A stretch of 64,000 nt of DNA from Ranitomeya imitator (Eukaryota): the NCBI RefSeq assembly GCF_032444005.1, contig NC_091287.1, forward strand, positions 533,634,001-533,698,000. The letters run 5' to 3'. The notes below the pieces were generated by a model. The model was not told the origin of the DNA and searched no databases. It worked only from the letters and a program-made list of their open reading frames with translations. Position numbers and translations under genes: made by a program. Position 1 is the stretch's first letter, and every line of letters begins with the position of its first letter. Below, piece by piece: positions 14,927-55,353 of this stretch.

Positions 14927-16194
14927 GTAAGAGGCAGGAAGCAGCAGCACACATGTATACTAGTAAACCGTGAGGAGTGATTGTGACGACACAGCATTTA
15001 ATCTTAATTATCCAGACGTCTATTTTCAGTTCGTTAAGAACCATAGACTGCTGCCATATGAATCTTAACCCTGCTGTTCTGTTGGTCAAAAATGACCGAC
15101 TTTGAACTTCAATATTCTTTAAAATATTCAAGATGCGGCTCTGAAACCCGTGGCCGACCGACCCATCCTCATTTAAGTCAATCAACCACAAGTTTCAGAA
15201 CCGCATCTTGAACACCCCAAAAAATACCAAAGTTCAAAATAGGTCTCCCCAGACCGAACAGAACAGCAGGGTTAAACAGTGATTTTTTTTTATGTTTGAA
15301 TGGCTGTTGTTTGCCTCTTATATCAGCTCCTATAGCTTAATGTCTGCTATCTTTGCAAGACAGTGACGCAGGGTCATTGAACAATGAATGTTTAATAATA
15401 AGTTGACTGACCATTGTCTGGGACCCCGAGGCTTGTTGACTTGCAAAACAGAGGAGTAAAAACTATGCAAATTGATTAAATACTCAAACAATGCGAGGTA
15501 AACTCATCACATCTTTCTCTTGACCTCCGGATGATGGCTTGAAGGACAATAGTTGGGAACTATATAATGGGGATATGCTTCTGTAACAAGAGATCCAGAA
15601 AACCAGAAACTCTTTTTAAAACACAGCAAGGGACACTCTACAGGATAGCTGCCAGAACATCTCGGCTCCATCACAAAGGACACAGATTTGACATACTATA
15701 GGATACCAGCTTAGGGAACAACGGTCCCAGCTGATAGAATACAGTTCTTCTCCATTGACCTTCACTGATCCCATGGATACAGTTGCGGGAGACAGGATTG
15801 AGACCCACCGGTCACCTGGCTCCATGGAGATGTCCGGAGAAGCCAGGTTGTGACCCTCTAGTCACTTGGCCACATACCTAAATGGACTGTCAGCTTCCTA
15901 AGTATGGGATAATCCCTGGTCCATGCGGTCTCGAGCCAGCGGACTGGAGCACCCGCTGACCCCTGTATCTCCAAAGTGATATACTGAAAGATGGAGCTGT
16001 ATATAGAGGGGGTGAAAAAAGTGATGCACTGCCGAACACGTAACAGGTTGTATATAGAGAGGAATGAATAAAGTAATATACTATACTGCAAGAGGGGGCT
16101 GTACATAGAGGATGCTGTGAGGAGTGATGTACTGCAGAAGGAGGCTGTATATGGAGGAGACTGAGAGAAGTAATATACTGCAGGAAGGGACTGT

Positions 16195-16944
16195 TGTTGT
16201 GAATTCTGTGGCTGAGTTCACTTCTGTGGTCACAAGTGGTATTGCAGTCTCTGGGCTTCCTCCCTCAGGTGTTTTGGTGAGCTCGTTGGCTGCCTTGCTA
16301 TTTAGCTCCACCTGAGTCTGTCTTCCTTGCTCCTTGTCAATGTTCCAGTGTTGGATCTGAGCTACTGCATCTTTCCTTGGGCCTGCTGCTCTGCTAGATA
16401 AGTGCTTCTAGTTTGTTTTCTGTTTTTTCTGTCCAGCTTGCTATTAACTTTTGCTGGAAGCTCTGAGAAGCAAAGGGGTGCACCGCCGTGCTGTTAGTTC
16501 GGCACGGTGGGTCTTTTTTCCCCTTTGCGTGGTTTTCGTTTTAGGGTTTTTTGTAGACTGCATAGTTCTCTTAGCTATCCTCGCTCTGTCTAGAATATCG
16601 GGCCTCACTTTGCTGAATCTATTTCATTCCTACGTTTGTCTTTTCATCTTGCTAACAGTCATTATATGTGGGGGGCTGCCTATTCCTTTGGGGTATTTCT
16701 CTGAGGTAAGTCAGGCTTGTATTTCTATCTTCAGGCTAGTCAGCTCCTCAGGCAGTGCCGAGTTGCATAGGTAGTTGTTAGGCGCAATCCACTGCTGCTT
16801 TATAGTTGTGTGAGGATAGATCAGGTACTGCAGTCTACAGAGATTCCACGTCTCAGAGCTTGTCCTATTGTTTTTGGTTATTGCCAGAGCTCTGTATGTG
16901 CGCTGATTACTGCACGCTGTGTTGCCTGATTGCCAGCCATAACA
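16195..16944 (+). repeat. 5' LTR
   Basis: TGTTGTGAATTC...CCATAACA, repeated at 21137-21885. Confidence 0.95.
16299..16304 (+). promoter_or_regulatory. TATA-like box (TATTTA) in the LTR
   Basis: CTATTTA is also conserved in the diverged LTR at 34615-35429 (TAAATAG on the plus strand near 35273-35279). It lies 30 nt upstream of the putative self-primer. Confidence 0.5.
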
Positions 16945-16946
16945 GT

Positions 16947-16955
16947 ACAAGGAGC
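16947..16955 (+). promoter_or_regulatory. Putative self-priming primer-binding site (ACAAGGAGC)
   Basis: Lies 2 nt after the LTR end. Exact reverse complement of GCTCCTTGT at 16329-16337. Lacks the TGG start of a tRNA primer-binding site. Confidence 0.65.
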
Positions 16956-17075
16956 CCTTCAATGATTTCCAATAGAGGGAAAAAAGAAATCCTGACATCA
17001 TTTTTTTTTCTTAGCTCTGTCTTCAGTCTTTTTTTTCCCCTAGACATTAGAGTGCTTCAGGACACAGCTGTGGAC

Positions 17076-20000
17076 ATGGATATTCAGGCTCTGTGCTCCT
17101 CAATGGATAATCTCGTTGTAAATGTACAAAAGATTCAAGATACTATTGATCAGAAATCGATGCTAGAACCAAGAATTCCGATTCCTGATTTGTTTTTTGG
17201 TGACAGAACTAAGTTCCTGAGCTTCAGAAATAATTGTAAGCTATTTTTGGCCTTGAAACCTCATTCTTCTGGTAATCCTATTCAACAGGTTTTGATTATT
17301 ATTTCTTTTTTGCGCGGCGACCCACAGGACTGGGCGTTTTCTCTTGCACCAGGAGATTCTGCATTGAGTAATGTTGATGCATTTTTCCAGGCGCTGGGAT
17401 TGCTTTACGATGAGCCTAATTCAGTGGATCAAGCTGAGAAAAATCTGCTGGCTTTATGCCAGGGTCAGGATGATGTAGAAGTATATTGTCAGAAATTTAG
17501 GAAATGGTCAGTACTCACTCTGTGGAATGAATCTGCACTAGCGGCTTTGTTCAGAAAGGGTCTCTCTGAAGCTCTTAAGGATGTAATGGTGGGATTTCCT
17601 ATGCCTGCTGGTTTGAATGAGTCTATGTCCTTGGCCATTCAGATCGGTCGTCGCTTGCGCGAGCGTAAATCTGTGCACCATCTGGCGGTATTGTCTGAGA
17701 GTAAGCCTGAGCCTATGCAGTGCGACAGGACTATGACTAAAGTAGAACGGCACGAACACAGACGTCTGAACAGACTGTGTTTCTATTGTGGTGATTCTAC
17801 TCATGCTATTTCTAATTGTCCTAAACGCACTAGGCGGTTTGATAGCTCTGCCGTTATTGGTACTGTACAGTCCAAATTCCTTTTGTCCATTACCTTAATG
17901 TGCTCTTTGTCATCATATTCTGTCATGGCGTTTGTGGATTCAGGCGCTGCCCTGAATCTGATGGATTTGGATTATGCTAAACGTTGTGGATTTTTCTTGG
18001 AGCCTTTGCGGTGTCCTATTCCGTTGAGAGGAATTGATGCTACACCTTTGGCCAAGAATAAGCCTCAGTACTGGGCCCAGCTGACCATGTGCATGGCTCC
18101 TGCACATCAGGAAGTTATTCGCTTTTTGGTACTGCATAATTTGCATGATGTGGTCGTGTTGGGGTTGCCATGGCTACAAACCCATAATCCAGTATTGGAT
18201 TGGAACTCTATGTCGGTAACCAGCTGGGGTTGTCAGGGAGTACATGGTGATGTTCCATTTTTGTCTATTTCGTCATCCATTCCTTCTGACATCCCAGAGT
18301 TCTTGTCGGACTTTCAGGATGTATTTGAAGAGTCCAAGTCTGATGCCCTACCTCCGCATAGGAATTGTGATTGTGCTATCGATTTGATTCCTGGTAGTAA
18401 ATTCCCTAAGGGTCGTTTATTTAATTTGTCCGTACCTGAACACACCGCTATGCGCAGTTATGTGAAGGAGTCCCTGGAGAAGGGACATGTTCGCCCATCG
18501 TCGTCACCATTGGGAGCAGGGTTCTTTTTTGTAGCCAAGAAGGATGGTTCGCTAAGACCGTGTATTGATTACCGCCTTCTTAATAAGATCACTGTTAAGT
18601 TTCAGTATCCCTTGCCATTGATTTCTGACTTGTTTGCTCGGATTAAGGGGGCTAGTTGGTTTACTAAGATTGATCTTCGTGGTGCGTATAATCTGGTGAG
18701 AATCAGGCAGGGAGATGAATGGAAAACGGCATTTAATACGCCCGAGGGTCATTTTGAATATCTGGTGATGCCGTTCGGACTTGCCAATGCTCCATCTGTT
18801 TTTCAGTCTTTTATGCATGACATTTTCCGTGAGTATCTGGATAAATTCTTGATTGTTTACTTGGATGACATTTTGATCTTCTCAGATGATTGGGAGTCTC
18901 ATGTGAAGCAAGTCAGAATGGTTTTCCAGGTACTGCGTGCTAATTTCTTGTTCGTGAAGGGATCAAAGTGTCTCTTCGGTGTGCAGAAAGTTTCATTTTT
19001 GGGGTTCATCTTTTCCCCTTCTACTATCGAGATGGATCCGGTTAAGGTTCAGGCCATCCAGGATTGGACTCAGCCGACATCTCTAAAAAGTTTGCAGAAA
19101 TTCCTGGGCTTTGCTAATTTTTATCGTCGCTTCATCTGTAATTTTTCTAGCATTGCCAGACCATTGACCGATTTGACCAAGAAGGGTGCTGATTTGGTTA
19201 ATTGGTCTTCTGCTGCCGTGGAAGCTTTTCAGGAGTTGAAGCGTCGTTTTTGCTGTGCCCCTGTGTTGTGTCAACCTGATGTTTCTCTTCCGTTCCAGGT
19301 CGAGGTTGATGCTTCTGAGATTGGTGCAGGGGCGGTTTTGTCACAGAGAGGTTCTGGTTGCTCAGTGTTCAAACCATGTGCTTTCTTTTCCAGGAAATTT
19401 TCTGCTGCTGAGCGTAATTATGATGTGGGCAACCGAGAGTTGCTGGCCATGAAGTGGGCATTCGAGGAGTGGCGTCATTGGCTTGAGGGTGCTAAGCATC
19501 GCGTGGTGGTTTTGACTGATCATAAGAACCTTACTTATCTTGAGTCTGCCAAGCGCTTGAATCCTAGACAGGCCCGTTGGTCGTTATTTTTTGCTCGTTT
19601 TGATTTTGTGATTTCATACCTTCCGGGCTCTAAAAATGTGAAGGCGGATGCTCTGTCTAGGAGTTTTGTGCCCGACTCTCCGGGGTTATCTGAGCCGGCG
19701 AGTATCCTCAAGGAAGGAGTCATTGTGTCTGCCATCTCCCCTGATTTGCGGAGAGTGTTGCAGAAATTTCAGGCTAATAAACCTGATCGTTGTCCGGCCG
19801 AGAAACTGTTCGTCCCTGATAGGTGGACTAGTAAAGTTATCTCTGAACTTCATTGTTCGGTGCTGGCCGGTCATCCAGGAATCTTTGGTACCAGGGAGTT
19901 GGTTGCTAGATCCTTCTGGTGGCCATCTCTGTCACGGGATGTGCGTGCTTTTGTGCAGTCCTGTGGAATTTGTGCTAGGGCTAAGCCCTGCTGTTCACGT

Positions 20001-21257
20001 GCCAGTGGGTTGCTTTTGCCCTTGCCGGTCCCGAAGAGGCCTTGGACACATATTTCGATGGATTTCATTTCTGACCTTCCCGTTTCTCAAAAAATGTCGG
20101 TCATTTGGGTGGTCTGTGATCGCTTTTCTAAAATGGTCCATCTGGAGCCCTTGGTTAAATTGCCTTCCTCCTCTGATTTGGTGCCTTTGTTCTTCCAGCA
20201 TGTGGTTCGTTTACATGGCATTCCTGAGAATATTGTTTCTGACAGAGGTTCCCAGTTTGTCTCGAGGTTCTGGCGAGCCTTTTGTGGTAGGATGGGCATT
20301 GACCTATCTTTTTCCTCGGCCTTCCATCCTCAGACTAATGGCCAGACCGAACGAACCAATCAGACCTTGGAAACATATCTGAGATGTTTTGTTTCCGCTG
20401 ACCAGGATGATTGGGTGTCATTTTTGCCGTTGGCTGAGTTCGCCCTTAATAATCGGGCCAGCTCGGCTACCTTGGTCTCTCCATTTTTCTGCAATTCTGG
20501 GTTCCATCCTCGTTTCTCTTCAGGACAGGTTGAGTCTTCGGACTGTCCTGGTGTGGATTATGTGGTGGACAGGTTGCAGCAGATCTGGACTCAGGTAGTG
20601 GACAATTTGACCTTGTCCCAGGAGAAGGCTCAGCTTTTCGCTAATCGCAGACGCCGTGTGGGACCCCGACTTCGTGTTGGGGATCTGGTTTGGTTATCTT
20701 CTCGTCATATACCTATGAAGGTTTCCTCTCCTAAATTTAAACCTCGTTTTATTGGTCCGTATAGGATTTCTGAGATTCTCAATCCGGTGTCTTTTCGTCT
20801 GACCCTCCCAGACTCCTTTTCCATACATAATGTATTCCATAGGTCGTTGTTGAGGAGATACGTGGCACCTATGGTTCCATCTGTGGAGCCTCCTGCCCCT
20901 GTTTTGGTGGAGGGGGAATTGGAGTATATTGTGGAGAAGATTTTGGATTCTCGTGTCTCTAGACGGAAACTCCAGTATCTGGTCAAATGGAAGGGTTATG
21001 CTCAGGAAGATAATTCCTGGGTTTTTGCCTCTGATGTCCATGCCCCAGATCTTGTTCGTGCCTTTCATGTGGCTCATCCTGGTCGGCCTGGGGGTTCTGG
21101 TGAGGGTTCGGTGACCCCTCCTCAAGGGGGGGGTACTGTTGTGAATTCTGTGGCTGAGTTCACTTCTGTGGTCACAAGTGGTATTGCAGTCTCTGGGCTT
21201 CCTCCCTCAGGTGTTTTGGTGAGCTCGTTGGCTGCCTTGCTATTTAGCTCCACCTGA
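17076..21257 (+). CDS. Gag-Pol polyprotein: capsid, CCHC knuckle, protease, RT, RNase H, integrase, chromodomain
   Basis: Motifs in order: IPIPDLFFGD (gag), CFYCGDSTHAISNC, FVDSGA, YLDDILIFS, DASEIGAGAVL, HCSVLAGHPG..CGIC, GPYRI, EYIVEKILDSR..YLVKWKGY..NSW. No stop or frameshift. In-frame ATGs also occur at 16896 and 16962. The stop lies 120 nt inside the 3' LTR. Confidence 0.95.
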   Translation: MDIQALCSSMDNLVVNVQKIQDTIDQKSMLEPRIPIPDLFFGDRTKFLSFRNNCKLFLALKPHSSGNPIQQVLIIISFLRGDPQDWAFSLAPGDSALSNVDAFFQALGLLYDEPNSVDQAEKNLLALCQGQDDVEVYCQKFRKWSVLTLWNESALAALFRKGLSEALKDVMVGFPMPAGLNESMSLAIQIGRRLRERKSVHHLAVLSESKPEPMQCDRTMTKVERHEHRRLNRLCFYCGDSTHAISNCPKRTRRFDSSAVIGTVQSKFLLSITLMCSLSSYSVMAFVDSGAALNLMDLDYAKRCGFFLEPLRCPIPLRGIDATPLAKNKPQYWAQLTMCMAPAHQEVIRFLVLHNLHDVVVLGLPWLQTHNPVLDWNSMSVTSWGCQGVHGDVPFLSISSSIPSDIPEFLSDFQDVFEESKSDALPPHRNCDCAIDLIPGSKFPKGRLFNLSVPEHTAMRSYVKESLEKGHVRPSSSPLGAGFFFVAKKDGSLRPCIDYRLLNKITVKFQYPLPLISDLFARIKGASWFTKIDLRGAYNLVRIRQGDEWKTAFNTPEGHFEYLVMPFGLANAPSVFQSFMHDIFREYLDKFLIVYLDDILIFSDDWESHVKQVRMVFQVLRANFLFVKGSKCLFGVQKVSFLGFIFSPSTIEMDPVKVQAIQDWTQPTSLKSLQKFLGFANFYRRFICNFSSIARPLTDLTKKGADLVNWSSAAVEAFQELKRRFCCAPVLCQPDVSLPFQVEVDASEIGAGAVLSQRGSGCSVFKPCAFFSRKFSAAERNYDVGNRELLAMKWAFEEWRHWLEGAKHRVVVLTDHKNLTYLESAKRLNPRQARWSLFFARFDFVISYLPGSKNVKADALSRSFVPDSPGLSEPASILKEGVIVSAISPDLRRVLQKFQANKPDRCPAEKLFVPDRWTSKVISELHCSVLAGHPGIFGTRELVARSFWWPSLSRDVRAFVQSCGICARAKPCCSRASGLLLPLPVPKRPWTHISMDFISDLPVSQKMSVIWVVCDRFSKMVHLEPLVKLPSSSDLVPLFFQHVVRLHGIPENIVSDRGSQFVSRFWRAFCGRMGIDLSFSSAFHPQTNGQTERTNQTLETYLRCFVSADQDDWVSFLPLAEFALNNRASSATLVSPFFCNSGFHPRFSSGQVESSDCPGVDYVVDRLQQIWTQVVDNLTLSQEKAQLFANRRRRVGPRLRVGDLVWLSSRHIPMKVSSPKFKPRFIGPYRISEILNPVSFRLTLPDSFSIHNVFHRSLLRRYVAPMVPSVEPPAPVLVEGELEYIVEKILDSRVSRRKLQYLVKWKGYAQEDNSWVFASDVHAPDLVRAFHVAHPGRPGGSGEGSVTPPQGGGTVVNSVAEFTSVVTSGIAVSGLPPSGVLVSSLAALLFSST
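21124..21133 (+). promoter_or_regulatory. Polypurine tract
   Basis: AAGGGGGGGG, followed by TAC and then the TG start of the 3' LTR. Confidence 0.85.
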
Positions 21258-21885
21258 GTCTGTCTTCCTTGCTCCTTGTCAATGTTCCAGTGTTGGATCT
21301 GAGCTACTGCATCTTTCCTTGGGCCTGCTGCTCTGCTAGATAAGTGCTTCTAGTTTGTTTTCTGTTTTTTCTGTCCAGCTTGCTATTAACTTTTGCTGGA
21401 AGCTCTGAGAAGCAAAGGGGTGCACCGCCGTGCTGTTAGTTCGGCACGGTGGGTCTTTTTGCCCCTTTGCGTGGTTTTCGTTTTAGGGTTTTTTGTAGAC
21501 TGCATAGTTCTCTTTGCTATCCTCGCTCTGTCTAGAATATCGGGCCTCACTTTGCTGAATCTATTTCATTCCTACGTTTGTCTTTTCATCTTGCTAACAG
21601 TCATTATATGTGGGGGGCTGCCTATTCCTTTGGGGTATTTCTCTGAGGTAAGTCAGGCTTGTATTTCTATCTTCAGGCTAGTCAGCTCCTCAGGCAGTGC
21701 CGAGTTGCATAGGTAGTTGATAGGCGCAATCCACTGCTGCTTACAGTTGTGTGAGGATAGATCAGGTACTGCAGTCTACAGAGATTCCACGTCTCAGAGC
21801 TCGTCCTATTGTTTTTGGTTATTGCCAGATCTCTGTATGTGCGCTGATTACTGCACGCTGTGTTGCCTGATTGCCAGCCATAACA
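21137..21885 (+). repeat. 3' LTR
   Basis: Near-identical to 16195-16944. Confidence 0.95.
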
Positions 21886-22371
21886 GACTGTGTCACGAGT
21901 CGGTCACATCCTCCTGGGAGATCTGGGGTTAGAAATACGTTACGTATTGTGAATTGCAGGTCTTTCATTTAGTCTGTGAGTTTGTGTTTCATATCAAATA
22001 GATTTTGTTTTCTTTGGGGCTGAAAAAGTTAATTACCCTTTCTATACTGGTTAGAAATTTGCAGCTCCATCTGACAGTTGTTCCTGACCTGGTCATTTCC
22101 TCTCTCTATAAAATCTGGCCAGACCTTCTCTTCCTTTCCAGTGAAAGTTCTATTTCCTATTTCCTTGAAGTAGCTGTGCTGCATTGGAGATCATTGTTGC
22201 TGCTGGAGATTGTAGCAGGCTGTTTTTGGGTGTATGCTTTCCTCATTGTCCTGTTCCCATTTGGTTTGTACATTCCAACTCTTCCCTATATACCTCTCTT
22301 TCTTAGGTTGAATGTTCTGTATGTTATTTGCTTGTTGTTATCCCTGTTTGTCTTACATGTTGATACACAAG

Positions 22372-23553
22372 TGGAGCGCCCGCCAGGGCACTGGTGCACT
22401 CGGGCCGAGTCCGATAGTTCCTTAGGGGTATGTGACACAGCAGCAGTGACCCGGTCCATGGCCCTGGGCGTCCAATGAAAAAAGATGATAAAAAGGGAAA
22501 AATAAAGTTTATAAGGGATTTGTACGTGACGCCACGCGTGGTGTTCGGTCAATGTGGCCGACACTACAATTCAGATCCTCTGGGGCAGTTGGTGACGCAG
22601 CTAAGATGTTTCAGCTTGCCATGGACAGAGCTAGTCCCCAGGGCAGATATGGGTGTTAATTGTGATGATGATGGTTATGATAGTTGTTGTGCAGGGCAAG
22701 TTGCGCAGGAATAATTCAGAGGACACAGCTGAGTGCAGTTTTCAATGCTTTACTCACAGTTCTGCAGATTACTGTATCCAGCCATGTGCTGTGTCCTTTG
22801 GGTCTGTGGTCCAGCCAACCCCGAGATAATTTGGGGTACACTTCTACAGGACTCCTCTCTTATGTTCCTTTCCTGGCCGTCTCATTGCACTGGTTCCCAC
22901 CTCTCCTGCCCTGCGCCTTCACACACAGTGTCCCAAGCCAGCAGCCTCGGACCTTGTCGGGTGACGTCCTCTGCATCCCCTTGCTCCTGTATGGCTGCCT
23001 TTTTAGCCTTTTTAGCGAATGTATGGATGTGGCTGTGGCACCTACATCTGCCACAGCCTCCAGCTTGCAAGCTGAGCCTTGTAGTCCTCCACTAGTCTTG
23101 TGGGCCGGTTCCCCACTGTGACCTGGTCCCTCCACCTGGCGATGGTCAACGTGGATGCGGGCCCCATGGGTGGATTGCTCACTACACGTGCCCCTAGGAC
23201 CCCTTCTTTCTTTCTCACTTTCTGCAACTTCTCTCTCTGTCTTCTGGTGCTGGGATGAGCTCCTCTTTGCTCAAGTCCCCTGCTCCAACTGTCTAACCCT
23301 TTAACTCACTCCTCCCTTGTTTCCATAACAACTCTACTCTCTCCACCCACACCCTCTACCTAGTAACCCTCTCCAGACTGGGATGAGGCCAACCTCCCAT
23401 AGGGTATGCCCAGGTGCCCTGACTGGTGTGGAGAGCTGTTGGATGCTGGGGTAAGAGTCCTGGGTAGTGCCCCCTCCTTACCTGAGAGTGGGATACCACA
23501 CCTCTGGATGAGGTACAGTACCTCTGTGGCAACTGGACCTCAGGGGCACCACA
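22372..23553. mobile_element. Solo-LTR-like sequence (tentative)
   Basis: Weak inverted ends TGGAGCGCCC / GGGGCACCACA and LTR-like composition; no TSD found. Confidence 0.3.
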
Positions 23554-34614: not shown

Positions 34615-37600
34615 TGTTATGATCTGGTAATTCAGTACCACAATGGACATAGAAGTCAGAGCACATACAGTGACCTGACAATAACCCAAAAGCATAGAAC
34701 GAGCTCTGAGACGTGGGAACTCTGCTGACCGCAATCCCTAATCCTCTCCAACCACACTAGAGGCAGCCGTGGATTGCGCCTAACGCTCCCTATGCAACTC
34801 GGCACAGCCTGAGAAACTAGCTAGCCTGAAGAAAGAAAATAAGCCTACCTTGCCTCAGAGAAATACCCCAAAGGAAAAGGCAGCCCCCACATATAATGAC
34901 TGTGAGTAAAGATGAAAAGACAAACATAGAGATGAAATAGATTTAGCAAAGTGAGGCCCGACTTTCTGAACAGAGCGAGGATAGGAAAGGTAACTTTGCG
35001 GTCAACACAAAACCCTACAAACAACCACGCAAAGGGGGCAAAAAGACCCTCCGTACCGAACTAACGGCACGGAGGTACACCCTCTGCGTCCCAGAGCTTC
35101 CAGCAAGCACGAGAAAACAAATAAGCAAGCTGGACAGAAAAAAACAGCAAACAAAATAGCAAAAGCGGAACTTAGCTATGCAGAGCAGCAGGCCACAGGA
35201 ACGATCCAGGAGGAAACAGGTCCAATACTAGAACATTGACTGGAGGCCAGGATCAAAGCACTAGGTGGAGTTAAATAGAGCAGCACCTAACGACTTCACC
35301 ACATCACCTGAGGAAGGAAACTCAGAAGCCGCAGTACCACTCTCCTCCACCAACGGAAGCTCACAGAGAGAATCAGCCGAAGTACCACTTGTGACCACAG
35401 GAGGGAGCTCTGCCACAGAATTCACAACAGTACCCCCCCCCCCCTTGAGGAGGGGTCACCGAACCCTCACCAGAGCCCCCAGGACGACCAGGATGGGCCA
35501 CATGAAAGGCACAAACAAGATCGGGAGCATGGACATCAGAGGCAAAGACCCAGGAATTATCTTCCTGAGCATAACCCTTCCACTTAACCAGATACTGGAG
35601 TTTCCGTCTTGAAACACGAGAATCCAAAATCTTCTCCACAATATATTCCAACTTCCCCTCCACCAAAACCGGGGAGGAGGATCAACAGATGGAACCATAG
35701 GTGCCACGTATCTCCGCAACAATGACCTATGGAATACGTTATGAATGGAAAAAGAATCTGGAAGGGTCAAACGAAAAGACACAGGATTAAGAACCTCAGA
35801 AATCCTATACGGACCAATGAAACGAGGTTTAAACTTAGGAGAGGAAACCTTCATAGGAATATGACGAGAAGATAACCAAACCAAATCCCCAACACGAAGT
35901 CGGGGACCCACACAGCGTCTGCAATTAGCGAAACGTTGAGCCTTCTCCTGGGACAAGGTCAAATTGTCCACTACATGAGTCCAAATCTGCTGCAACCTGT
36001 CCACCACAGTATCCACACCAGGACAGTCAGAAGACTCAACCTGCCCTGAAGAGAAATGAGGATGGAACCCAGAGTTGCAGAAAAACGGCGAAACCAAGGT
36101 AGCCGAGCTGGCCCGATTATTAAGGGCGAACTCAGCCAAAGGCAAAAAGGACACCCAGTCATCCTGATCAGCAGAAACAAAGCATCTCAGATATGTTTTC
36201 AAGGTCTGATTGGTTCGTTCGGTCTGGCCATTAGTCTGAGGATGAAAAGCCGAGGAAAAAGACAAGTCAATGCCCATCCTAGCACAAAAGGCTCGCCAAA
36301 ACCTCAAAACAAACTGGGAACCTCTGTCAGAAACGATATTCTCTGGAATGCCATGTAAACGAACCACATGCTGGAAGAACAATGGCACCAAATCAGAGGA
36401 GGAAGGTAATTTAGACAAGGGTACCAAATGGACCATCTTAGAGAAGCGATCACAAACCACCCAAATGACTGACATTTTTTGAGAGACGGGAAGATCTGAA
36501 ATAAAATCCATAGAGATATGTGTCCAAGGCCTCTTCGGGACCGGCAAGGGCAAAAGCAACCCACTGGCACGAGAACAGCAGGGCTTAGCCCGAGCACAAA
36601 TCCCGCAGGACTGCACAAAAGAACGCACATCCCGCGACAGAGATGGCCACCAAAAGGATCTAGCCACTAACTCTCTGGTACCAAAGATTCCAGGATGACC
36701 AGCCAACACCGAACAATGAACCTCAGAGATAACTTTATTCGTCCACCTATCAGGGACAAACAGTTTCTCCGCTGGGCAACGATCAGGTTTATTAGCCTGA
36801 AATTTTTGCAGCACCCGCCACAAATCAGGGGAGATGGCAGACACAATTACTCCCTCTTTGAGAATACCCGCCGGCTCAGATAAACCTGGAGAGTCGGGCA
36901 CAAAACTCCTAGACAGAGCATCCGCCTTCACATTTTTAGAGCCCGGAAGGTACGAAATCACAAAGTCAAAATGGGCAAAAAACAACGACCAACGAGCCTG
37001 TCTAGGATTCAACCGCTTGGCAGACTCGAGATAAGTCAAGTTCTTATGATCAGTCAAGACCACCACGCGATGCTTAGCTCCTTCAAGCCAATGACGCCAC
37101 TCCTCGAATGCCCACTTCATGGCCAGCAACTCTCGATTGCCAACATCATAATTTCGCTCAGCAGGTGAAAACTTCCTGGAAAAGAAGGCGCATGGTTTCA
37201 TCACAGAGCAATCAGAACTTCTCTGCGACAAAACAGCCCCTGCTCCAATCTCAGAAGCATCAACCTCGACCTGGAATGGAAGCGAAACATCTGGTTGACA
37301 CATCACAGGGGCAGAAGAAGAACGACGCTTCAACTCTTGAAAAGCTTCCACAGCAGCAGAAGACCAATTGACCACATCAGCACCCTTCTTGGTCAAATCG
37401 GTCAATGGTTTAGCAATACTAGAAAAATTGCAGATGAAGCGACGATAAAAATTAGCAAAGCCCAGGAACTTTTGCAGACTTTTCAGAGATGTCGGCTGAG
37501 TCCAATCATGGATGGCTTGGACCTTAACAGGGTCCATCTCGATAGTAGAAGGGGAAAAGATGAACCCCAAAAATGAAACCTTCTGAACACCAAAGAGACA

Positions 37601-38765
37601 CTTTGATCCCTTCACAAACAAAGAATTAGCACGCAGGACCTGAAACACTGTTCTGACCTGCTTCACATGAGACTCCAAATCATCCGAGAAGATCAAAATG
37701 TCATCCAAGTACACAATCAGGAATTTATCCAGGTACTCTCGGAAGATGTCATGCATAAAGGACTGAAACACTGATGGAGCATTGGCAAGTCCGAAAGGCA
37801 TTACTAGATACTCAAAATGGCCCTCGGGCGTATTAAATGCAGTTTTCCATTCATCGCCTCGCTTAATACGCACAAGATTATACGCACCACGAAGATCTAT
37901 CTTGGTGAACCAACTAGCCCCCTTAATCCGAGCAAACAAATCAGATAACAACGGCAAGGGGTACTGAAATTTAACCGTGATCTTATTTAGAATGCGGTAA
38001 TCTATACAAGGTCTCAGCGAACCATCCTTCTTGGCCACAAAAAAGAACCCTGCTCCTAATGGCGACGATGACGGGCGGATATGCCCCTTCTCCAAGGACT
38101 CCTTCACGTAACTCCGCATAGCGGCGTGCTCAGGCACAGATAAATTAAACAGTCGACCATTTGGGAATTTACTACCAGGAATCAAATCGATAGCACAATC
38201 ACAATCCCTATGCGGAGGTAGGGTATCGGACTTAGGCTCATCAAATACATCCCGGTAATCAGACAAGAACTCTGGAACCTCAGAAGGGGTGGATGACGAA
38301 ATAGACAGAAATGGGACATCACCATGTACCCCCTGACAACCCCATCTGGACACCGACATGGATTTCCAATCTAATACTGGATTATGGACTTGTAGCCATG
38401 GCAACCCCAACACGACCACATCATGCAAATTATGCAACACCAGAAAGCGAATAACCTCCTGATGTGCAGGAGCCATGCACATGGTCAGCTGGGTCCAGTA
38501 CTGAGACTTATTCTTGGCCAAAGGCGTAGCATCAATTCCTCTCAATGGAATAGGACACTGCAAGGGCTCCAAGAAAAACCCACAACGCCTAGCATACTCC
38601 AAGTCCATCAAATTCAGGGCAGCGCCTGAATCCACAAATGCCATGACAGAATAAGATGACAAAGAGCAGATCAAGGTAACGGACAAAAGAAATTTTGACT
38701 GTACCGTACCAATGGTGGCAGACCTAGCGAACCGCTTAGTGCGCTTAGGACAATCAGAGATAGCA
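34615..38765 (-). mobile_element. 5'-deleted Ty3/Gypsy chromovirus (relative of 16195-21885)
   Basis: 3' LTR at 34615-35429 (TGTTATG...CACAACA on the plus strand) and PPT as a C-run at 35433-35446. The pol region is homologous to copy 1. The 5' LTR and most of gag are missing; the sequence breaks inside the zinc knuckle. Confidence 0.93.
35373..38765 (-). pseudogene. Truncated gag-pol (protease, RT, RNase H, integrase, chromodomain) with one frameshift
   Basis: Retains FVDSGA, YLDDILIFS and the integrase motifs. A frameshift near 35670 (VDPPPRFW instead of VEPPAPVLVEG) moves the chromodomain into the 35373-35666 frame. Confidence 0.88.
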
Positions 38766-45253: not shown

Positions 45254-46514
45254 TTGTGGTTGAGCATCAACTGGCATAGCAGAGTTGTAATCCACAAGGG
45301 AGCCAGGTAAACTCAGAGATGAGTAAGCAAGGTAGACTCAGTGTAGGAGAGCAGAATTCTACGGAGGGTTTTCAGTAGAGCAGGTCCAGCGAGGTAGCAC
45401 AGTATTGAGTTACAGAATTTATCTGAATCAAGGCTTTTTTTTTAGCAGGGCTGGTCCAGCAAAGTAGCAGAGGTACCTCAGTTTCAGTAACCAGAATAGT
45501 AGAACTGAGTTGTACAGGAAGTTCTGGGGCAGAGCTTGTCCAGTGAAGTAACAGAGCTGAGTTTGAGGCATAGAGCAATAATGCAGAGCTGGCACATCAA
45601 TAGGGCAACGTAGACTCAGCGATGTAGCACAGATGAGTTTCTAGCAGAGTCCAGAGCTGGTTATGGCAAAAGGTTCAAGACTAAGTAGAAGTCCACAGTA
45701 GCACCGTGAACTACCTGAATACTCAGGCGGCACCTGCCACCTGAAGCGGCCTGTAGCATCTGGAAGAGTAGATTACAGGTTCTCATTTGGAGGAAAAGAG
45801 ATAGGTGTATTAAGAAGAAAGACAGCGATCACTGGTAGAGCTACGACAGGTGAGTAACACTTTTTTACTTCCCCATAGAAGGACTAGACTTCCATGCTTC
45901 TTTCGAGGCTCTGCTCCATTCCTGACTAACAGGACAGGACACTATTTCTTCTTGGCTTTCAATTTTCATGTTGAACCCCAAGAAACTGGTGCACACTACA
46001 CATACAGTATATAACCTTAGATAGTATTGTCTACATGTTCTATTTTTTTTCTTTCCTAAATTCACAGCCATCAGTGCTGGTCACATAAAACGTGTGTCCT
46101 TTTAAGTCCTGAGTTAATATTTGGCAAAATCACCTTTTTTTTGTAATGGTAACCAACCAGATCCTAGAGTAATTACAGAGCACAGCGGAACATTTCCAGC
46201 TTTTGCTCTTATCTGAGTGTCTTCAGCGTGTGCGTAACAGCCAAGGTTGTCTAAATATGGAAAATAAAGAGGCAGCGGGCGCTGCGGCACTTCAAGGTAA
46301 TTCTTATATATAAATAAATACAGATGAGAGATTGGGTCATGTTCACAGAAGAGGGCAAAATGACCCGCATTTTCCTGGCATCTTATGTTCACCGTGCAGT
46401 TTAAGGCTAACTAATTACTTAAACAGGATTACCGTTCCCGAAGCTCCTATTAAATCTGTGGGTGATATTCTTTGGTGGTCAAGAACAAAAACATTCCCCC
46501 TTCACCTGTTCTGA

Positions 46515-48560
46515 TTGGTGGATCCTGTGTTATCTACTGTATATAGAGGTGCACTCAGTCATTGTACAGGAGGAGGAGGTGAGCTGTGATATCATCTATT
46601 GTGGATGGTGGATCCTGTGTTATCTACTGTATATAGAGGTGTTGTCAGTCATTGTACAGGAGGAGGAGGTGAGCTGTGACATCACCTATTGTGAATGGTG
46701 GATCCTGTGTTATCTACTGTATATAGAGGTGTTATCAGTCATTGTACAGGAGGAGGAGGTGAGCTGTGATATCACCTATTGTGAATGGTGGATCCTGTGT
46801 TATCTCCTGAATATAGAGGTGTTATCAGTCATTGTACAGGAGGAGGAGGTGAGCTGTGACATCACCTATTGTGAATGGTGGATCCTGTGTTATCTCCTGA
46901 ATATAGAGGTGTTATCAGTCATTGTACAGGAGGAGGAGGTGAGCTGTGACATCACCTATTGTGAATGGTGGATCCTGTGTTATCTCCTGAATATAGAGGT
47001 GTTATCAGTCATTGTACAGGAGGAGGAGGTGAGCTGTGACATCACCTATTGTGAATGGTGGATCCTGTGTTATCTACTGTATATAGCGGAGTTATCAGTC
47101 ATTGTACAGGAGGAGGAGGTGAGCTGTGACATCACCTATTGTGAATGCTGGATCCTGTGTTATCTCCTGAATATAGAGGTGTTATCAGTCATTGTACAGG
47201 AGGAGGAGGTGAGCTGTGACATCACCTATTGTGAATGGTGGATCCTGTGTTATCTACTGTATATAGCGGAGTTATCAGTCATTGTACAGGAGGAGGTGAG
47301 CTGTGACATCACCTATTGTGAATGATGGATCCTGTGTTATCTACTGTATATAGAGGTGTTATCAGTCACTGTACAGGAGTAGGTGAGCTGTGATATCACC
47401 TATTGTGGATGGTGGATCCTGTGTTATCTACTGTATATAGAGGTGTTATCAGTCATTGTACAGGAGGAGGAGGTGAGCTGTGACATCACCTATTATGAAT
47501 GGTGCATCCTGTGCTATCTTCTGTATATACAGGTGTTATCAGTCATTGTACAGGAGGAGGAGGTGAGCTGTGACATCACCTATTGTGGATGGTGGGTCCT
47601 GTGATATCTACCGTATATAGAGGTGTTATCAGTTATTGTACAGGAGGAGGAGGTGAGCTGTGACATCACCTATTGTGAATGGTGGATTTTGTGTTATCTA
47701 CTATATATAGAGGTGTTATCAGTCATTGCACAGGAGGAGGAGGTGAGCTGTGACATCACCTATTGTGAATGGTGGATCCTGTGTTATCTACTGTATATAG
47801 AGGTGTTATCAGTCATTGTACAGCAGGAGGAGGTGAGCTGTGATGTCACCTATTGTGAATGGTGGATCCTGTGTTATCTACTCTACATAGAGGTGTTATC
47901 AGTTATTGTACAGGAGGAGGAGGTGAGCTGTGACATCACCTATTATGAATGGTGGATTTTGTGTTATCTACTGTATATAGAGGTGTTATCAGTCATTGTA
48001 CAGGAGGGGGAGGTGAGCTGTGACATCACCTATTGTGAATGGTGGATCCTGTGTTATCTACTGTATATAGAGATGTTATCAGTCAATGTACAGGAGGAGG
48101 AGGTGAGCTGTGACATCACCTATTGTGAATGGTGGATCCTGTGTTATCTACTGTATATAGCGGAGTTATCAGTCATTGTACAGGAGGAGGAGGTGAGCTG
48201 TGACATCACCTATTGTGAATGGTGGATCCTGTGTTATCTCCTGAATATAGAGGTGTTATCAGTCATTGTACAGGAGGAGGAGGTGAGCTGTGACATCACC
48301 TATTGTGAATGCTGGATCCTGTGTTATCTACTGTATATAGCGGAGTTATCAGTCATTGTACAGGAGGAGGTGAGCTGTGACATCACCTATTGTGAATGGT
48401 GGATCCTGTGTTATCTACTGTATATAGAGGTGTTATCAGTCACTGTACAGGAGTAGGTGAGCTGTGATATCACCTATTGTGGATGGTGGATCCTGTGTTA
48501 TCTACTGTATATAGAGGTGTTATCAGTCATTGTACAGGAGGAGGAGGTGAGCTGTGACAT
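46515..48560 (+). repeat. 90-bp satellite, left block (~23 units)
   Basis: Unit ATTGTACAGGAGGAGGAGGTGAGCTGTGACATCACCTATTGTGAATGGTGGATCCTGTGTTATCTACTGTATATAGAGGTGTTATCAGTC. Confidence 0.97.
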
Positions 48561-48675
48561 AGTAACATAGTAACATAGTAACATAGTTAGTAAGGCCGAA
48601 AAAAGACATTTGTCCATCCAGTTCAGCCTATATTCCATCATAATAAATACCCAGATCTACGTCCTTCTACAGAAC

Positions 48676-51452
48676 CTAATAATTGTATGATACAATATTG
48701 TTCTGCTCCAGGAAGACATCCAGGCCTCTCTTGAACCCCTCGACTGAGTTCGCCATCACCACCTCCTCAGGCAAGCAATTCCAGATTCTCACTGCCCTAA
48801 CAGTAAAGAATCCTCTTCTATGTTGGTGGAAAAACCTTCTCTCCTCCAGACGCAAAGAATGCCCCCTTGTGCCCGTCACCTTCCTTGGTATAAACAGATC
48901 CTCAGCGAGATATTTGTATTGTCCCCTTATATACTTATACATGGTTATTAGATCGCCCCTCAGTCGTCTTTTTTCTAGACTAAATAATCCTAATTTCGCT
49001 AATCTATCTATTGTAGTTCTCCCATCCCCTTTATTAATTTTGTTGCCCTCCTTTGTACTCTCTCTAGTTCCATTATATCCTTCCTGAGCACCGGTGCCCA
49101 AAACTGGACACAGTACTCCATGTGCGGTCTAACTAGGGATTTGTACAGAGGCAGTATAATGCTCTCATCATGTGTATCCAGACCTCTTTTAATGCACCCC
49201 ATGATCCTGTTTGCCTTGGCAGCTGCTGCCTGGCACTGGCTGCTCCAGGTAAGTTTATCATTAACTAGGATCCCCAAGTCCTTCTCCCTGTCAGATTTAC
49301 CCAGTGGTTTCCCGTTCAGTGTGTAATGGTGATATTGATTCCCTCTTCCCATGTGTATAACCTTACATTTATCATTGTTAAACCTCATCTGCCACCTTTC
49401 AGCCCAAGTTTCCAACTTATCCAGATCCATCTGTAGCAGAATACTATCTTCTCTTGTATTAACTGCTTTACATAGTTTTGTATCATCTGCAAATATCGAT
49501 ATTTTACTGTGTAAACCTTCTACCAGATCATTAATGAATATGTTGAAGAGAACAGGTCCCAATACTGACCCCTGCGGTACCCCACTGGTCACAGCGACCC
49601 AGTTAGAGACTATACCATTTATAACCACCCTCTGCTTTCTATCACTAAGCCAGTTACTAACCCATTTACACACATTTTCCCCCAGACCAAGCATTCTCAT
49701 TTTGTGTACCAACCTCTTGTGCGGCACGGTATCAAACGCTTTGGAAAAATCGAGATATACCACGTCCAATGACTCACCGTGGTCCAGTCTATAGCTTACC
49801 TCTTCATAAAAACTGATTAGATTGGTTTGACAGGAGCGATTTCTCATAAACCCATGCTGATATGGAGTTAAACAGTTATTCTCATTGAGATAATCCAGAA
49901 TAACATCCCTCAGAAACCCTTCAAATATTTTACCAACAATAGAGGTTAGACTTACTGGCCTATAATTTCCAGGTTCACTTTTAGAGCCCTTTTTGAATAT
50001 TGGCACCACATTTGCTATGCGCCAATCCTGCGGAACAGACCCTGTCGCTATAGAGTCCCTAAAAATAAGAAATAATGGTTTATCTATTATATTACTTAGT
50101 TCTCTTAGTACTCGTGGGTGTATGCCATCCGGACCCGGAGATTTATCTATTTTAATCTTATTTAGCCGGTTTCGCACCTCTTCTTGGGTTAGATTGGTGA
50201 CCCTTAATATAGGGTTTTCATTGTTTCTTGGGATTTCACCTAGCATTTCATTTTCCACCGTGAATACCGTGGAGAAGAAGGTGTTTAATATGTTAGCTTT
50301 TTCCTCGTCATCTACAACCATTCTTTCCTCACTATTTTTTAAGGGGCCTACATTTTCAGTTTTTATTCTTTTACTATTGATATAGTTGAAGAACAGTTTG
50401 GGATTAGTTTTACTCTCCTTAGCAATGTGCTTCTCTGTTTCCTTTTTGGCAGCTTTAATTAGTTTTTTAGATAAAGTATTTTTCTCCCTATAGTTTTTTA
50501 GAGCTTCAATGGTGCCATCCTGCTTTAGTAGTGCAAATGCTTTCTTTTTACTGTTAATTGCCTGTCTTACTTCTTTGTTTAGCCACATTGGGTTTTTCCT
50601 ATTTCTAGTCCTTTTATTCCCACAAGGTATAAACCGCTTACACTGCCTATTTAGGATGTTCTTAAACATTTCCCATTTATTATCTGTATTCTTATTTCTG
50701 AGGATATTGTCCCAGTCTACCAGATTAAGGGCATCTCTAAGCTGGTCAAACTTTGCCTTCCTAAAGTTCAATGTTTTTGTGACTCCCTGACAAGTCCCCC
50801 TAGTGAAAGACAGGTGAAACTGCACAATATTGTGGTCGCTATTTCCTAAATGCCCAACCACCTGCAGATTTGTTATTCTGTCAGGTCTATTAGATAGTAT
50901 TAGGTCTAAAAGTGCTGCTCCTCTGGTTGGATTCTGCACCAATTGTGAAAGATAATTTTTCTTGGTTATTAGCAGAAACCTGTTGCCTTTATGGGTTTCA
51001 CAGGTTTCTGTTTCCCAGTTAATATCCGGGTAGTTAAAGTCCCCCATAACCAGGACCTCATTATGGGTTGCAGCTTCATCTATCTGCTTTAGAAGTAGAC
51101 TTTCCATGCTTTCTGTTATATTTGGGGGTTTGTAACAGACCCCAATGAGAATTTTGTTACCATTTTTCCCTCCATGAATTTCAACCCATATGGACTCGAC
51201 ATCCTCATTTCCTTCGCTAATATCCTCCCTTAAAGTGGACTTTAGACAAGACTTTACATAGAGACAAACCCCTCCTCCTCTCCGATTTTTACGATCCTTT
51301 CTAAACAGACTGTAACCCTGTAAGTTAACTGCCCAGTCATAGCTTTCATCTAACCATGTCTCGGTTATTCCCACTATGTCAAAGTTACCTGTAGATATTT
51401 CTGCTTCTAGTTCTTCCATCTTGTTTGTCAGGCTTCTGGCGTTTGCGAGCAT
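48676..51452 (-). CDS. CR1 ORF2 (APE endonuclease + reverse transcriptase), frameshifted near the C-terminus
   Basis: Motifs NARSL, ITETWL, GDFNYPDI, SDHN, SPGPDGI, YRPVSLTS, LDFSKAFD, GVPQGSVLGP and FADDTKL. The frame breaks near 49010 (GELQ then stop) and RLAKLGLFSLEKRRLRGD continues in another frame, consistent with a small deletion. Confidence 0.92.
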
Positions 51453-51589
51453 GCAGTTTAGAGGATTTTGTTTTGTTCCAATCTCCTCACTGTGGATTGT
51501 TTTAGAAATGTTCTTACCTCCCTTCTGAGTATGTTTTCCTGGGTCGTCTTTGTTCGAGTCTAATGTTTTTCTTCCCGTCCCCTCTTCTT

Positions 51590-52036
51590 CTAGTTTAACG
51601 CCCTCCTGATGAGTGTAGCGAGTCTTCTGGCGAATGTGTGTTTCCCAGGTTTGTTGAGGTGTAGTCCGTCTCTGGCGAGGAGTCCATCATACCAGTAATT
51701 CACACCGTGGTCCAGGAATCCAAATCCTTGTGGTCTGCACCATCGTCTTAGCCAGTTGTTTGCATCAAGGATCCTGTTCCATCTCCTGGTGCCATGCCCG
51801 TCTACTGGAAGGATAGTAGAAAAAACTACCTGTGCATCCAGTTCCTTTACTTTCTTCCCCAACTCTTCAAAGTCCTTGCAGATTGTCGGTAGGTCCTTCC
51901 TTGCCGTGTCATTGGTGCCAACATGTATCAGAAGAAATGGGTGGACGTCCTTGGAGCTGAAGAGCTTTGGTATCCTATCGGTCACATCCTTGATCATCGC
52001 ACCTGGAAGGCAGCATACTTCTCTTGCAGTTATGTC
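51590..52036 (-). CDS. CR1 ORF1 C-terminal SGNH esterase-like domain (partial)
   Basis: VCCLPGAMIKDV..LLIHVGTND..GFGFLDH..DGLHLN motifs, typical of esterase-bearing CR1/L2 ORF1. Confidence 0.85.
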   Translation of the reverse strand, partial: DITAREVCCLPGAMIKDVTDRIPKLFSSKDVHPFLLIHVGTNDTARKDLPTICKDFEELGKKVKELDAQVVFSTILPVDGHGTRRWNRILDANNWLRRWCRPQGFGFLDHGVNYWYDGLLARDGLHLNKPGKHTFARRLATLIRRALN

Positions 52037-55000
52037 ACCTATTATGAATGGTGCATCCTGTGCTATCTACTGTATATACAGGTGTTATCAGTCATTGTAC
52101 AGGAGGAGGAGGTGAGCTGTGACATCACCTATTGTGGATGGTGGGTCCTGTGTTATCTACCGTATATAGAGGTGTTATCAGTTATTGTACAGGAGGAGGA
52201 GGTGAGCTGTGACATCACCTATTGTGAATGGTGGATTTTGTGTTATCTACTATATATAGAGGTGTTATCAGTCATTGCACAGGAGGAGGAGGTGAGCTGT
52301 GACATCACCTATTGTGAATGGTGGATCCTGTGTTATCTACTGTATATAGAGATGTTATCAGTCAATGTACAGGAGGAGGAGGTGAGCTGTGATGTCACCT
52401 ATTGTGAATGGTGGATCCTGTGTTATCTACTGTATATAGAGGTGTTATCAGTCATTGTACAGCAGGAGGAGGTGAGCTGTGATGTCACCTATTGTGAATG
52501 GTGGATCCTGTGTTATCTACTCTACATAGAGGTGTTATCAGTTATTGTACAGGAGGAGGAGGTGAGCTGTGACATCACCTATTATGAATGGTGGATTTTG
52601 TGTTATCTACTGTATATAGAGGTGTTATCAGTCATTGTACAGGAGGGGGAGGTGAGCTGTGACATCACCTATTGTGAATGGTGGATCCTGTGTTATCTAC
52701 TGTATATAGAGATGTTATCAGTCAATGTACAGGAGGAGGAGGTGAGCTGTGACATCACCTATTGTGAATGGTGGATCCTGTGTTATCTACTGTATATAGA
52801 GGTGTTGTCAGCCATTGTACAGGAGGAGGATGAGGTGAGCTGTGACATCACCTATTGTGAATGGTGGATCCTGTGTTATCTACTGTATATAGAGGTGTTG
52901 TCAGCCATTGTACAGGAGGAGGATGAGGTGAGCTGTGACATCATCTATTGTGAATGGTGGATCCTGTGTTATCTACTGTATATAGAGGTGTTATCAATCA
53001 TTGTACAGGAGGAGGAGGTGAGCTGTGACATCACCTATTGTGAATGGTGGATCCTGTGTTATCTACTGTATATAGAGGTGTTATCAGTCATTGTACAGGA
53101 GGAGGAGGTGAGCTGTGATATCACCTATTGTGAATGGTGGATCCTGTGTTATCTCCTGAATATAGAGGTGTTATCAGTCATTGTACAGGAGGAGGAGGTG
53201 AGCTGTGACATCACCTATTGTGAATGGTGGATCCTGTGTTATCTCCTGAATATAGAGGTGTTATCAGTCATTGTACAGGAGGAGGAGGTGAGCTGTGACA
53301 TCACCTATTGTGAATGGTGGATCCTGTGTTATCTCCTGAATATAGAGGTGTTATCAGTCATTGTACAGGAGGAGGAGGTGAGCTGTGACATCACCTATTG
53401 TGAATGGTGGATCCTGTGTTATCTACTGTATATAGCGGAGTTATCAGTCATTGTACAGGAGGAGGAGGTGAGCTGTGACATCACCTATTGTGAATGGTGG
53501 ATCCTGTGTTATCTCCTGAATATAGAGGTGTTATCAGTCATTGTACAGGAGGAGGAGGTGAGCTGTGACATCACCTATTGTGAATGGTGGATCCTGTGTT
53601 ATCTACTGTATATAGCGGAGTTATCAGTCATTGTACAGGAGGAGGTGAGCTGTGACATCACCTATTGTGAATGATGGATCCTGTGTTATCTACTGTATAT
53701 AGAGGTGTTATCAGTCACTGTACAGGAGTAGGTGAGCTGTGATATCACCTATTGTGGATGGTGGATCCTGTGTTATCTACTGTATATAGAGGTGTTATCA
53801 GTCATTGTACAGGAGGAGGAGGTGAGCTGTGACATCACCTATTATGAATGGTGCATCCTGTGCTATCTTCTGTATATACAGGTGTTATCAGTCATTGTAC
53901 AGGAGGAGGAGGTGAGCTGTGACATCACCTATTGTGGATGGTGGGTCCTGTGATATCTACCGTATATAGAGGTGTTATCAGTTATTGTACAGGAGGAGGA
54001 GGTGAGCTGTGACATCACCTATTGTGAATGGTGGATCCTGTGTTATCTACTGTATATAGAGGTGTTATCAGTCATTGTACAGGAGGAGGAGGTGAGCTGT
54101 GACATCACCTATTATGAATGGTGCATCCTGTGCTATCTACTGTATATACAGGTGTTATCAGTCATTGTACAGGAGGAGGAGGTGAGCTGTGACATCACCT
54201 ATTGTGGATGGTGGGTCCTGTGTTATCTACTGTATATAGAGGTGTTGTCAGCCATTGTACAGGAGGAGGATGAGGTGAGCTGTGACATCACCTATTGTGA
54301 ATGGTGGATCCTGTGTTATCTACTGTATATAGAGGTGTTGTCAGCCATTGTACAGGAGGAGGATGAGGTGAGCTGTGACATCACCTATTGTGAATGGTGG
54401 ATCCTGTGTTATCTACTGTATATAGAGGTGTTATCAGCCATTGTACAGGAGGAGGAGGTGAGCTGTGACATCACCTATTGTCATTAGTGGATCCTGTGTT
54501 ATCTACTGTATATAGAGGTGTTATCAGTCATTATACAGGAGGATGAGGTGAGGTGTGACATCACTTATTGTGAATGGTGGATCATGTGTTATCTACTGTA
54601 TATAGAGGTATTATCAGTCATTGTACAGGAGGAGGAGGTGAGCTGTGACATCCTCTATTGTGAATGGTGGATCCTGTGTTATCTACTGTATATAGAGGTG
54701 TTATCAGTCATTGTACAGGAGGAGGAGGTGAGCTGTGACATCACCTATTGTGAATGGTGGATCCTGTGTTATCTACTGTATATAGAGGTCTTATCAGTCA
54801 TTGTACAGGAGGAGGAGGTGAGCTGTGACATCACCTATTGTGATTAGTGGATCCTGTGTTATCTACTGTGTATAGAGTTATTATCAGTCATTTTACAGGA
54901 GGAGGAGGTGAGCTGTGACATCACCTATTGTGGATGTTGAATCCTGTGCATTCTACTGTATATAGAGGTCTTATCAGTCATTGTACAGGAGGGGGAGGTA

Positions 55001-55353
55001 AGCTGTGATATCACCTATTGTGAATGGTGGATCCTGTGTTATCTACTGTATATAGAGGTGTTATCAGTCATTGTACAGGAGGAGGAGGTGAGCTGTGACT
55101 TCACCTATTGTGAATGGTGGATCCTGTGTTATCTACTGTATATAGAGGTGTTATCAGTCATTGTACAGGAGGAGGAGGTGAGCTGTGACATCACCTATTG
55201 TGAATGGTGGATCCTGTGCTATCTACTGTATATAGAGGTGTTATCAGTCATTGTACAGGAGGAGGAGGTGAGCTGTGACATCACCTATTGTGGATGTTGA
55301 ATCCTGTGCATTCTACTGTATATAGAGGTCTTATCAGTCATTGTACAGGAGGA
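52037..55353 (+). repeat. 90-bp satellite, right block (~37 units)
   Basis: Same unit as the left block; 87-bp and 93-bp variants arise from GGA/GAT slippage. Confidence 0.97.

Follow-up and report, generated by a model that had tools for sequence, protein, structure and literature searches.

The long terminal repeat (LTR) retrotransposon at positions 16195-21885 of the window (the entire 64,000-nt stretch of Ranitomeya imitator DNA analysed here) is a young, very abundant Ty3/Gypsy chromovirus, probably of the Tf1/sushi type. This element very probably uses the 5' end of its own RNA to prime reverse transcription, its primer-binding site (PBS) being complementary to a 9-nt stretch of the LTR located 30 nt past a TATA-like box. 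Such self-priming had been proposed in the initial annotation of the window; it is supported by a test in a second LTR subfamily, by ten variants within the element's own family (family A) and by six other families of the same genome. The parts of the element, and those of a second copy in the window, are listed in Table 1.

Table 1. Coordinates of the window element and of copy 2 (positions are those of the window).
Feature	Position	Strand	Remarks
Left target-site duplication GACTGT, 6 bp	16189-16194	+	6 bp also in 20/20 sister copies
5' LTR, 750 bp, TGTTGTG...CATAACA	16195-16944	+	Window self-comparison
TATA-like box TATTTA, putative promoter element	16299-16304	+	
Predicted self-primer GCTCCTTGT, putative RNA 5' end	16329-16337	+	Complementarity and covariation
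U5 stretch, bounds approximate	16862-16888	+	Candidate flanking helix with leader 16961-16975
Predicted U5-end hairpin, adjoining and stacking on primer duplex	16916-16946	+	Pair probability 0.94, window copy
GT spacer between LTR and PBS	16945-16946	+	
Primer-binding site ACAAGGAGC, not tRNA-type	16947-16955	+	
gag-pol, one open frame, 1393 aa, ATG 17076, stop 21257	17076-21257	+	Gag, protease, RT, RNase H, integrase, SH3, chromodomain
Polypurine tract AAGGGGGGGG + TAC ahead of 3' LTR	21124-21136	+	G-rich tract
3' LTR, 749 bp	21137-21885	+	Its copy of the primer motif at 21271-21279
Right target-site duplication GACTGT	21886-21891	+	
Copy 2 (subfamily 2), no 5' LTR	34615-38765	-	5'-truncated at 20-bp tandem array
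Copy 2 3' LTR	34615-35429	-	Motif GGCCTCCAGT at 35248-35239, 29 nt past TATTTAA

Profile searches of gag-pol returned matches to Gag, reverse transcriptase (RT), RNase H, integrase, SH3_Tf2-1 and a chromodomain, the latter (PF00385, E 3.6e-13) lying at the integrase C-terminus. The order Gag-PR-RT-RNase H-IN between the LTRs is that of Ty3/Gypsy elements (the protease match is weak, under the curated cut-off), and the best match in the PDB is Ty3 Gag-Pol. The two LTRs are identical at 743 of 749 aligned bases. Copy 2 matches the window element at 88% identity internally and at about 80% in the LTR. The gag-pol frame extends about 120 nt into the 3' LTR (21137-21257), so that U3 is also coding, and its stop codon sits downstream of the TATA-like box and upstream of the primer motif of that LTR. 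Neither AATAAA nor ATTAAA occurs anywhere in the LTR, and an Rfam search across 16100-17200 matched nothing. Directly adjoining the element on its 3' side is a second, unrelated LTR-like stretch (21892-22400) that opens with TGTCACGA. Elsewhere in the window, a 90-bp tandem array (46400-55350) is interrupted by a LINE-type endonuclease-RT element with an 892-aa open frame (49008-51686, minus strand).

In the window element, ACAAGGAGC lies 2 nt past the 5' LTR and is reverse-complementary to GCTCCTTGT, which lies 30 nt past TATTTA. The initial annotation had placed all three motifs correctly, and its statement that no TGG-type PBS is present was borne out, TGG being absent from the 6 nt that follow the 5' LTR. 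Its estimate of the chance probability (about 0.3%) errs somewhat on the low side, since the LTR is rich in T: given the LTR composition and five allowed offsets, a 9-mer match has a probability of 0.05 anywhere in the LTR and of 3e-4 at the TATA+30 position. Moreover, 9-mer matches into the LTR arise at 5 of 1000 offsets downstream of it, the PBS site being one of the five, and a longer (11-nt), low-complexity inverted match links 16977-16987 with 16512-16522. For these reasons, the complementarity seen in the window copy alone would be suggestive, not conclusive.

Copy 2 carries a diverged LTR motif, for which a correspondingly different PBS had been predicted. A genome search with the copy-2 LTR end yielded 30 loci, 11 of which are 5' LTRs. 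Ten of these are followed by GT-ACTGGAGGCC and one by GT-AATGGAGGCC, the LTR motif being GGCCTCCAGT or a one-letter variant of it. The prediction thus proved right, and motif and PBS do co-vary between the LTR subfamilies.

For family A as a whole, a pattern search of the 5.96-Gb genome found 28,471 LTR-PBS junctions with a purine at PBS position 4 (reversed control, 1). Rarer junctions have G or C at position 3 (55) or a pyrimidine at position 4 (48), and the family total is about 28,500. Many copies are near-identical, and some lie in tandem with common LTRs (L021, L081/L082). In an unselected sample made up of the first 30 loci of the junction pattern, 26 copies, representing five PBS types, show perfect 9-bp pairing at the fixed position; the other four comprise one with the motif displaced by 2 nt, one with a single mismatch and two without a TATA match. 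Altogether, family A uses ten different PBS sequences, each complementary to its own LTR motif. Among 30 position-3 variants, pairing is perfect in 17, includes a G-U wobble in three and a mismatch in seven, the remaining three having no TATA match. The position-4 pyrimidine variants behave differently: 27 of 30 mismatch their own LTR motif, two covary and one lacks a TATA match. These mismatches go against a perfect coupling of motif and PBS. The variants concerned, which make up 0.17% of junctions, are plausibly point mutants.

Alignment A1 comprises 39 family A copies picked for PBS diversity. Here 97.2% of the cells are paired, versus 85.6% in row shuffles (0 of 2000 reach the observed value) and 31-56% with slid partners. 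Two-sided changes are present at four of the nine base pairs, covariation counts being inflated by relatedness in that related copies are not independent events. One copy (L084) differs from the window subfamily at both motif and PBS, although outside these two sites the identity is 98-99%. In a tree built without the two sites, one primer/PBS pair is scattered over several LTR backgrounds, a distribution that could have arisen by recombination or by copying of the primer into the PBS. In two further copies (L071 and L072), the PBS belongs to one variant and the LTR motif to a different one.

Sister families were searched for with a polypurine-tract pattern, which gave 158 matches; 40 regions were examined and 17 left out, 12 without a 5' LTR and five without a CA end. 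L168, a mis-paired family-A LTR, was left out before counting, and L177 and L180 have common flanks and are not independent. Among the 22 elements delineated outside family A, 18 have an exact 9-11-nt complement of the PBS in the TATA+30 region, two have 7 exact nucleotides there and two show no match. The 22 elements fall into six LTR families that cannot be aligned to family A and almost wholly cannot be aligned to one another. Where the full RT segment was measurable, it is 58-66% identical to that of the window element (family B gave no RT match and family E only a degraded one). The primer motif starts with G in all 11 representatives, and a TATA-like motif lies 29-31 nt upstream of it in each (ten identified by pattern, the eleventh by eye); in none of the 11 does TGG occur within the first 6 nt after the LTR. 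Counting ten in family A and six in the other families, at least 16 different PBS sequences each track their own LTR motif. Judged by sequence comparison, these data put the complementarity far beyond chance.

Some of the sister families have features of their own. The family B copies (L153 and L154), with LTRs of 1.36-1.38 kb and a 1.87-kb internal part without RT, are a non-autonomous derivative in which the self-priming pair has been kept. Families B, D and F (L154, L156 and L180) have an ATG almost immediately after the PBS. In B and F, the stretch on the ATG side is predicted to pair with U5 (shuffles as good: 16 of 100 for B, 0 of 100 for F). In family D (L156), a strong hairpin 32 nt upstream of the primer motif brings the TATA region into pairing with that motif, with 0 of 200 shuffles as good. 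Such a U3 hairpin, masking the primer, was also looked for in family A and is absent there, 80 of 200 shuffles being as good.

RNA folding was performed on a 698-nt segment starting at 16329. The primer duplex has pair probabilities of 0.84-1.0 in the window copy and of 0.58-0.86 in a subfamily-2 copy, both values coming from the fold alone, without a shuffle control. The U5-end hairpin has a different partner in subfamily 2. As to the candidate helix between U5 and the leader, 94% of its cells are paired; it shows zero two-sided changes and is better than shuffles in just one of 11 representatives. Long R-U5 helices are also predicted within 16330-16900 (e.g., 16548-16562 with 16829-16843, and 16483-16510) and seem to persist in subfamily 2. 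Assembled contigs from eight runs, compared with the element, gave no position at which many molecules begin. In run X11 the contig breaks near 16322, with a step in depth; this was considered as a possible RNA start and discarded, because an indel variant lies at the same place and runs X1, X7, X13 and X15 lack the feature. Transcription probably starts at or near 16329, the 29-31-nt distance from the TATA-like motif being an indirect sign.

The proposed mechanism is as follows. Transcription would begin at or near G16329, and the first nine nucleotides of the RNA would pair with the PBS, a pairing to which covariation and the predicted fold both point. By analogy with Tf1, RNase H would then cut past the duplex and free a 3'-OH; an RNase H domain is present in gag-pol and may perform this cleavage. 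From there RT would copy GT, and then U5-R; the resulting terminus would be CA-GT, with AC-TG as its mirror image at the opposite end. A target duplication of 6 bp marks the integrated copies. Plus-strand synthesis would copy the primer into the PBS, which may partly explain the tight coupling of both sites. Counted against the scheme are the mismatching position-4 variants, the lack of covariation in the flanking helices, the variable offset (1-4 nt) and the length of the duplex, 9-10 bp versus 11 nt in Tf1.

GT after the 5' LTR and AC before the 3' LTR are found in 20 of 20 full-length family A copies, making a symmetric 2-nt extension; retroviral cDNA ends carry a comparable one. In the other families, where AC before the 3' LTR was imposed by the search pattern, the LTR-PBS offset is 1, 2 or 4 nt. 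The initial annotation had seen in the 2-nt offset the geometry of integrase 3'-processing. Within family A the offset is indeed fixed and mirrored by AC, but the argument is no more than suggestive, because the offset varies in the other families.

The family A target duplication measures 6 bp in all 20 full-length copies (L191-L210) and in all four solo LTRs (L034, L036, L044 and L049). The six sister families have a 5-bp duplication in 16 of 22 elements, none found in six, and never one of 6 bp. An alternative terminus, CAG with a 5-bp duplication, was rejected, as the flanking sequence is variable past CA and the two sides agree over 6 bp. In the literature searched, repeat databases lying outside its scope, no report of a 6-bp duplication in chromoviruses was found; a plant survey described in a section of PMC6317226 has 6-bp duplications in 0.4% of elements.

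The duplex could be real and yet structural, with a role in packaging, dimerisation or translation control, while a host RNA, for example a tRNA fragment, serves as primer. Half-tRNA priming is known in Ty1/copia lineages, according to a passage of PMC6317226. We consider a host primer very unlikely. It is hard to reconcile with at least 16 PBS sequences that each track their own LTR, since every one of them would need a primer; in addition, TGG is missing after the LTRs, and the longest PBS match to 60 distinct tRNA genes called Cys, Lys or Ile is 5-6 nt, a sample that came almost wholly from Lys and Cys clusters and leaves fragments of other tRNAs possible. Assignment to the half-tRNA-primed class (Osser, Bryco and Bianca, Ty1/copia elements with a fixed PBS) was rejected on account of the Gypsy domain order and of a PBS that varies with the LTR. 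A further alternative, to which we attach little probability, is that the RNA's own 5' end does prime, but often in trans, from the second RNA packaged alongside, whether or not a cut is made. The mixed copies L071 and L072 and the spread of one primer/PBS pair over several LTR backgrounds are what trans priming would produce; however, point mutation and template switching account for the mixed copies equally well, and most copies match in cis. Priming in cis and in trans cannot be told apart by sequence. Chance complementarity inherited from a single ancestor, for which the probability of up to 0.05 with five offsets in a T-rich LTR might speak, is effectively refuted by the subfamily-2 test, by the A1 alignment with its two-sided changes at four of nine pairs, and by six families whose LTRs cannot be aligned and in which the pairing recurs at an equal distance from TATA, and can be given practically no weight.

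The proteins closest to gag-pol are labelled poison frog (up to 100% identity), followed by those of other amphibians and fish (about 55-73%) and, more distantly, of fungi and algae (42-47%). In a FastTree phylogeny of RT-RNase H, built without named Tf1 or sushi-ichi sequences, the element nests among chromodomain-bearing relatives from fish and amphibians, with the fungal ones outside. Passages of PMC10085805 describe self-priming as a common feature of the Tf1/sushi group in fungi, vertebrates and non-seed plants, PMC6317226 mentions self-primers in yeast and vertebrates, and according to PMC4600332 it was demonstrated in Tf1 and is implicated in hosts ranging from fungi to vertebrates. Its steps are outlined for Tf2 in a section of PMC5341516. 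Vertebrate self-priming is credited to Butler et al. 2001, as cited in parts of PMC6317226 and PMC10085805; priming is not treated in the passages of PMC3601003 consulted. Taken together, the relevant sections of PMC10085805, PMC6317226 and PMC4600332 name yeast Tf1 as the element in which self-priming was demonstrated, and for others speak of it as implicated or predicted. Self-priming is already known as a hallmark of the Tf1/sushi group, and the frog family adds no new mechanism.

Like Tf1 and Tf2 of S. pombe, Tj1 of S. japonicus and Tosmo1-3 of S. osmophilus, as portrayed in passages of PMC10085805, PMC4600332 and PMC5341516, the frog element is of the Ty3/Gypsy type with a chromodomain, and its PBS, located just past the 5' LTR, is complementary to an LTR-internal stretch; a single ORF is common to it and Tf1/Tf2. 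Unlike the fission-yeast elements, it resides in a frog, and its 9-10-bp duplex lies 2 nt off the LTR. The target duplication is also different, 6 bp in family A versus 5 bp in the fission-yeast elements (a passage of PMC10085805). Tf1 requires two further duplexes flanking the primer duplex, as stated in the same paper. The corresponding three-duplex "pretzel" is not demonstrated in the frog, and the folds and alignments obtained would leave it not established in family A.

Self-priming, very probable in family A, is likewise reported for members of the vertebrate Tf1/sushi group (sushi-ichi, Amn-ichi/ni/san; GyDB V-clade), a comparison made without the named sushi-ichi or Amn sequences. In the literature searched we found, for vertebrate Tf1/sushi elements, neither genome-wide covariation over thousands of copies nor a 6-bp duplication, and nothing relevant on self-priming in amphibians. 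The main texts of poison-frog repeat papers do not mention primer binding or self-priming. For the Tcn1-clade chromoviruses of mosses and the TAR copia elements, self-priming is predicted by the same sequence criterion, given in a section of PMC6317226 as at least 10 bp of complementarity starting 0-5 bp past the LTR. Those elements have plant hosts, unlike family A, whose 9-bp variant falls just under that cut-off.

A broader reading joins these features in a distinct self-priming chromovirus variant of 28,000 copies, with a 9-bp duplex and no pretzel, retrovirus-like 2-nt ends, a 6-bp stagger, and a primer copied into the PBS at each cycle so that new pairs recur on different LTR backgrounds. 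We put this forward tentatively, as a possibility rather than as the expected outcome. If it is true, the genome would be a natural record of vertebrate self-priming. In conclusion, at least 16 primer/PBS pairs in seven families provide unusually deep comparative support for self-priming in a vertebrate. The proposal makes an exact prediction that is cheap to test, namely an RNA 5' end at 16329 and a cDNA opening with nine element-derived nucleotides. PBS annotation based on tRNAs would overlook a repeat family that ranks among the major ones in the genome.
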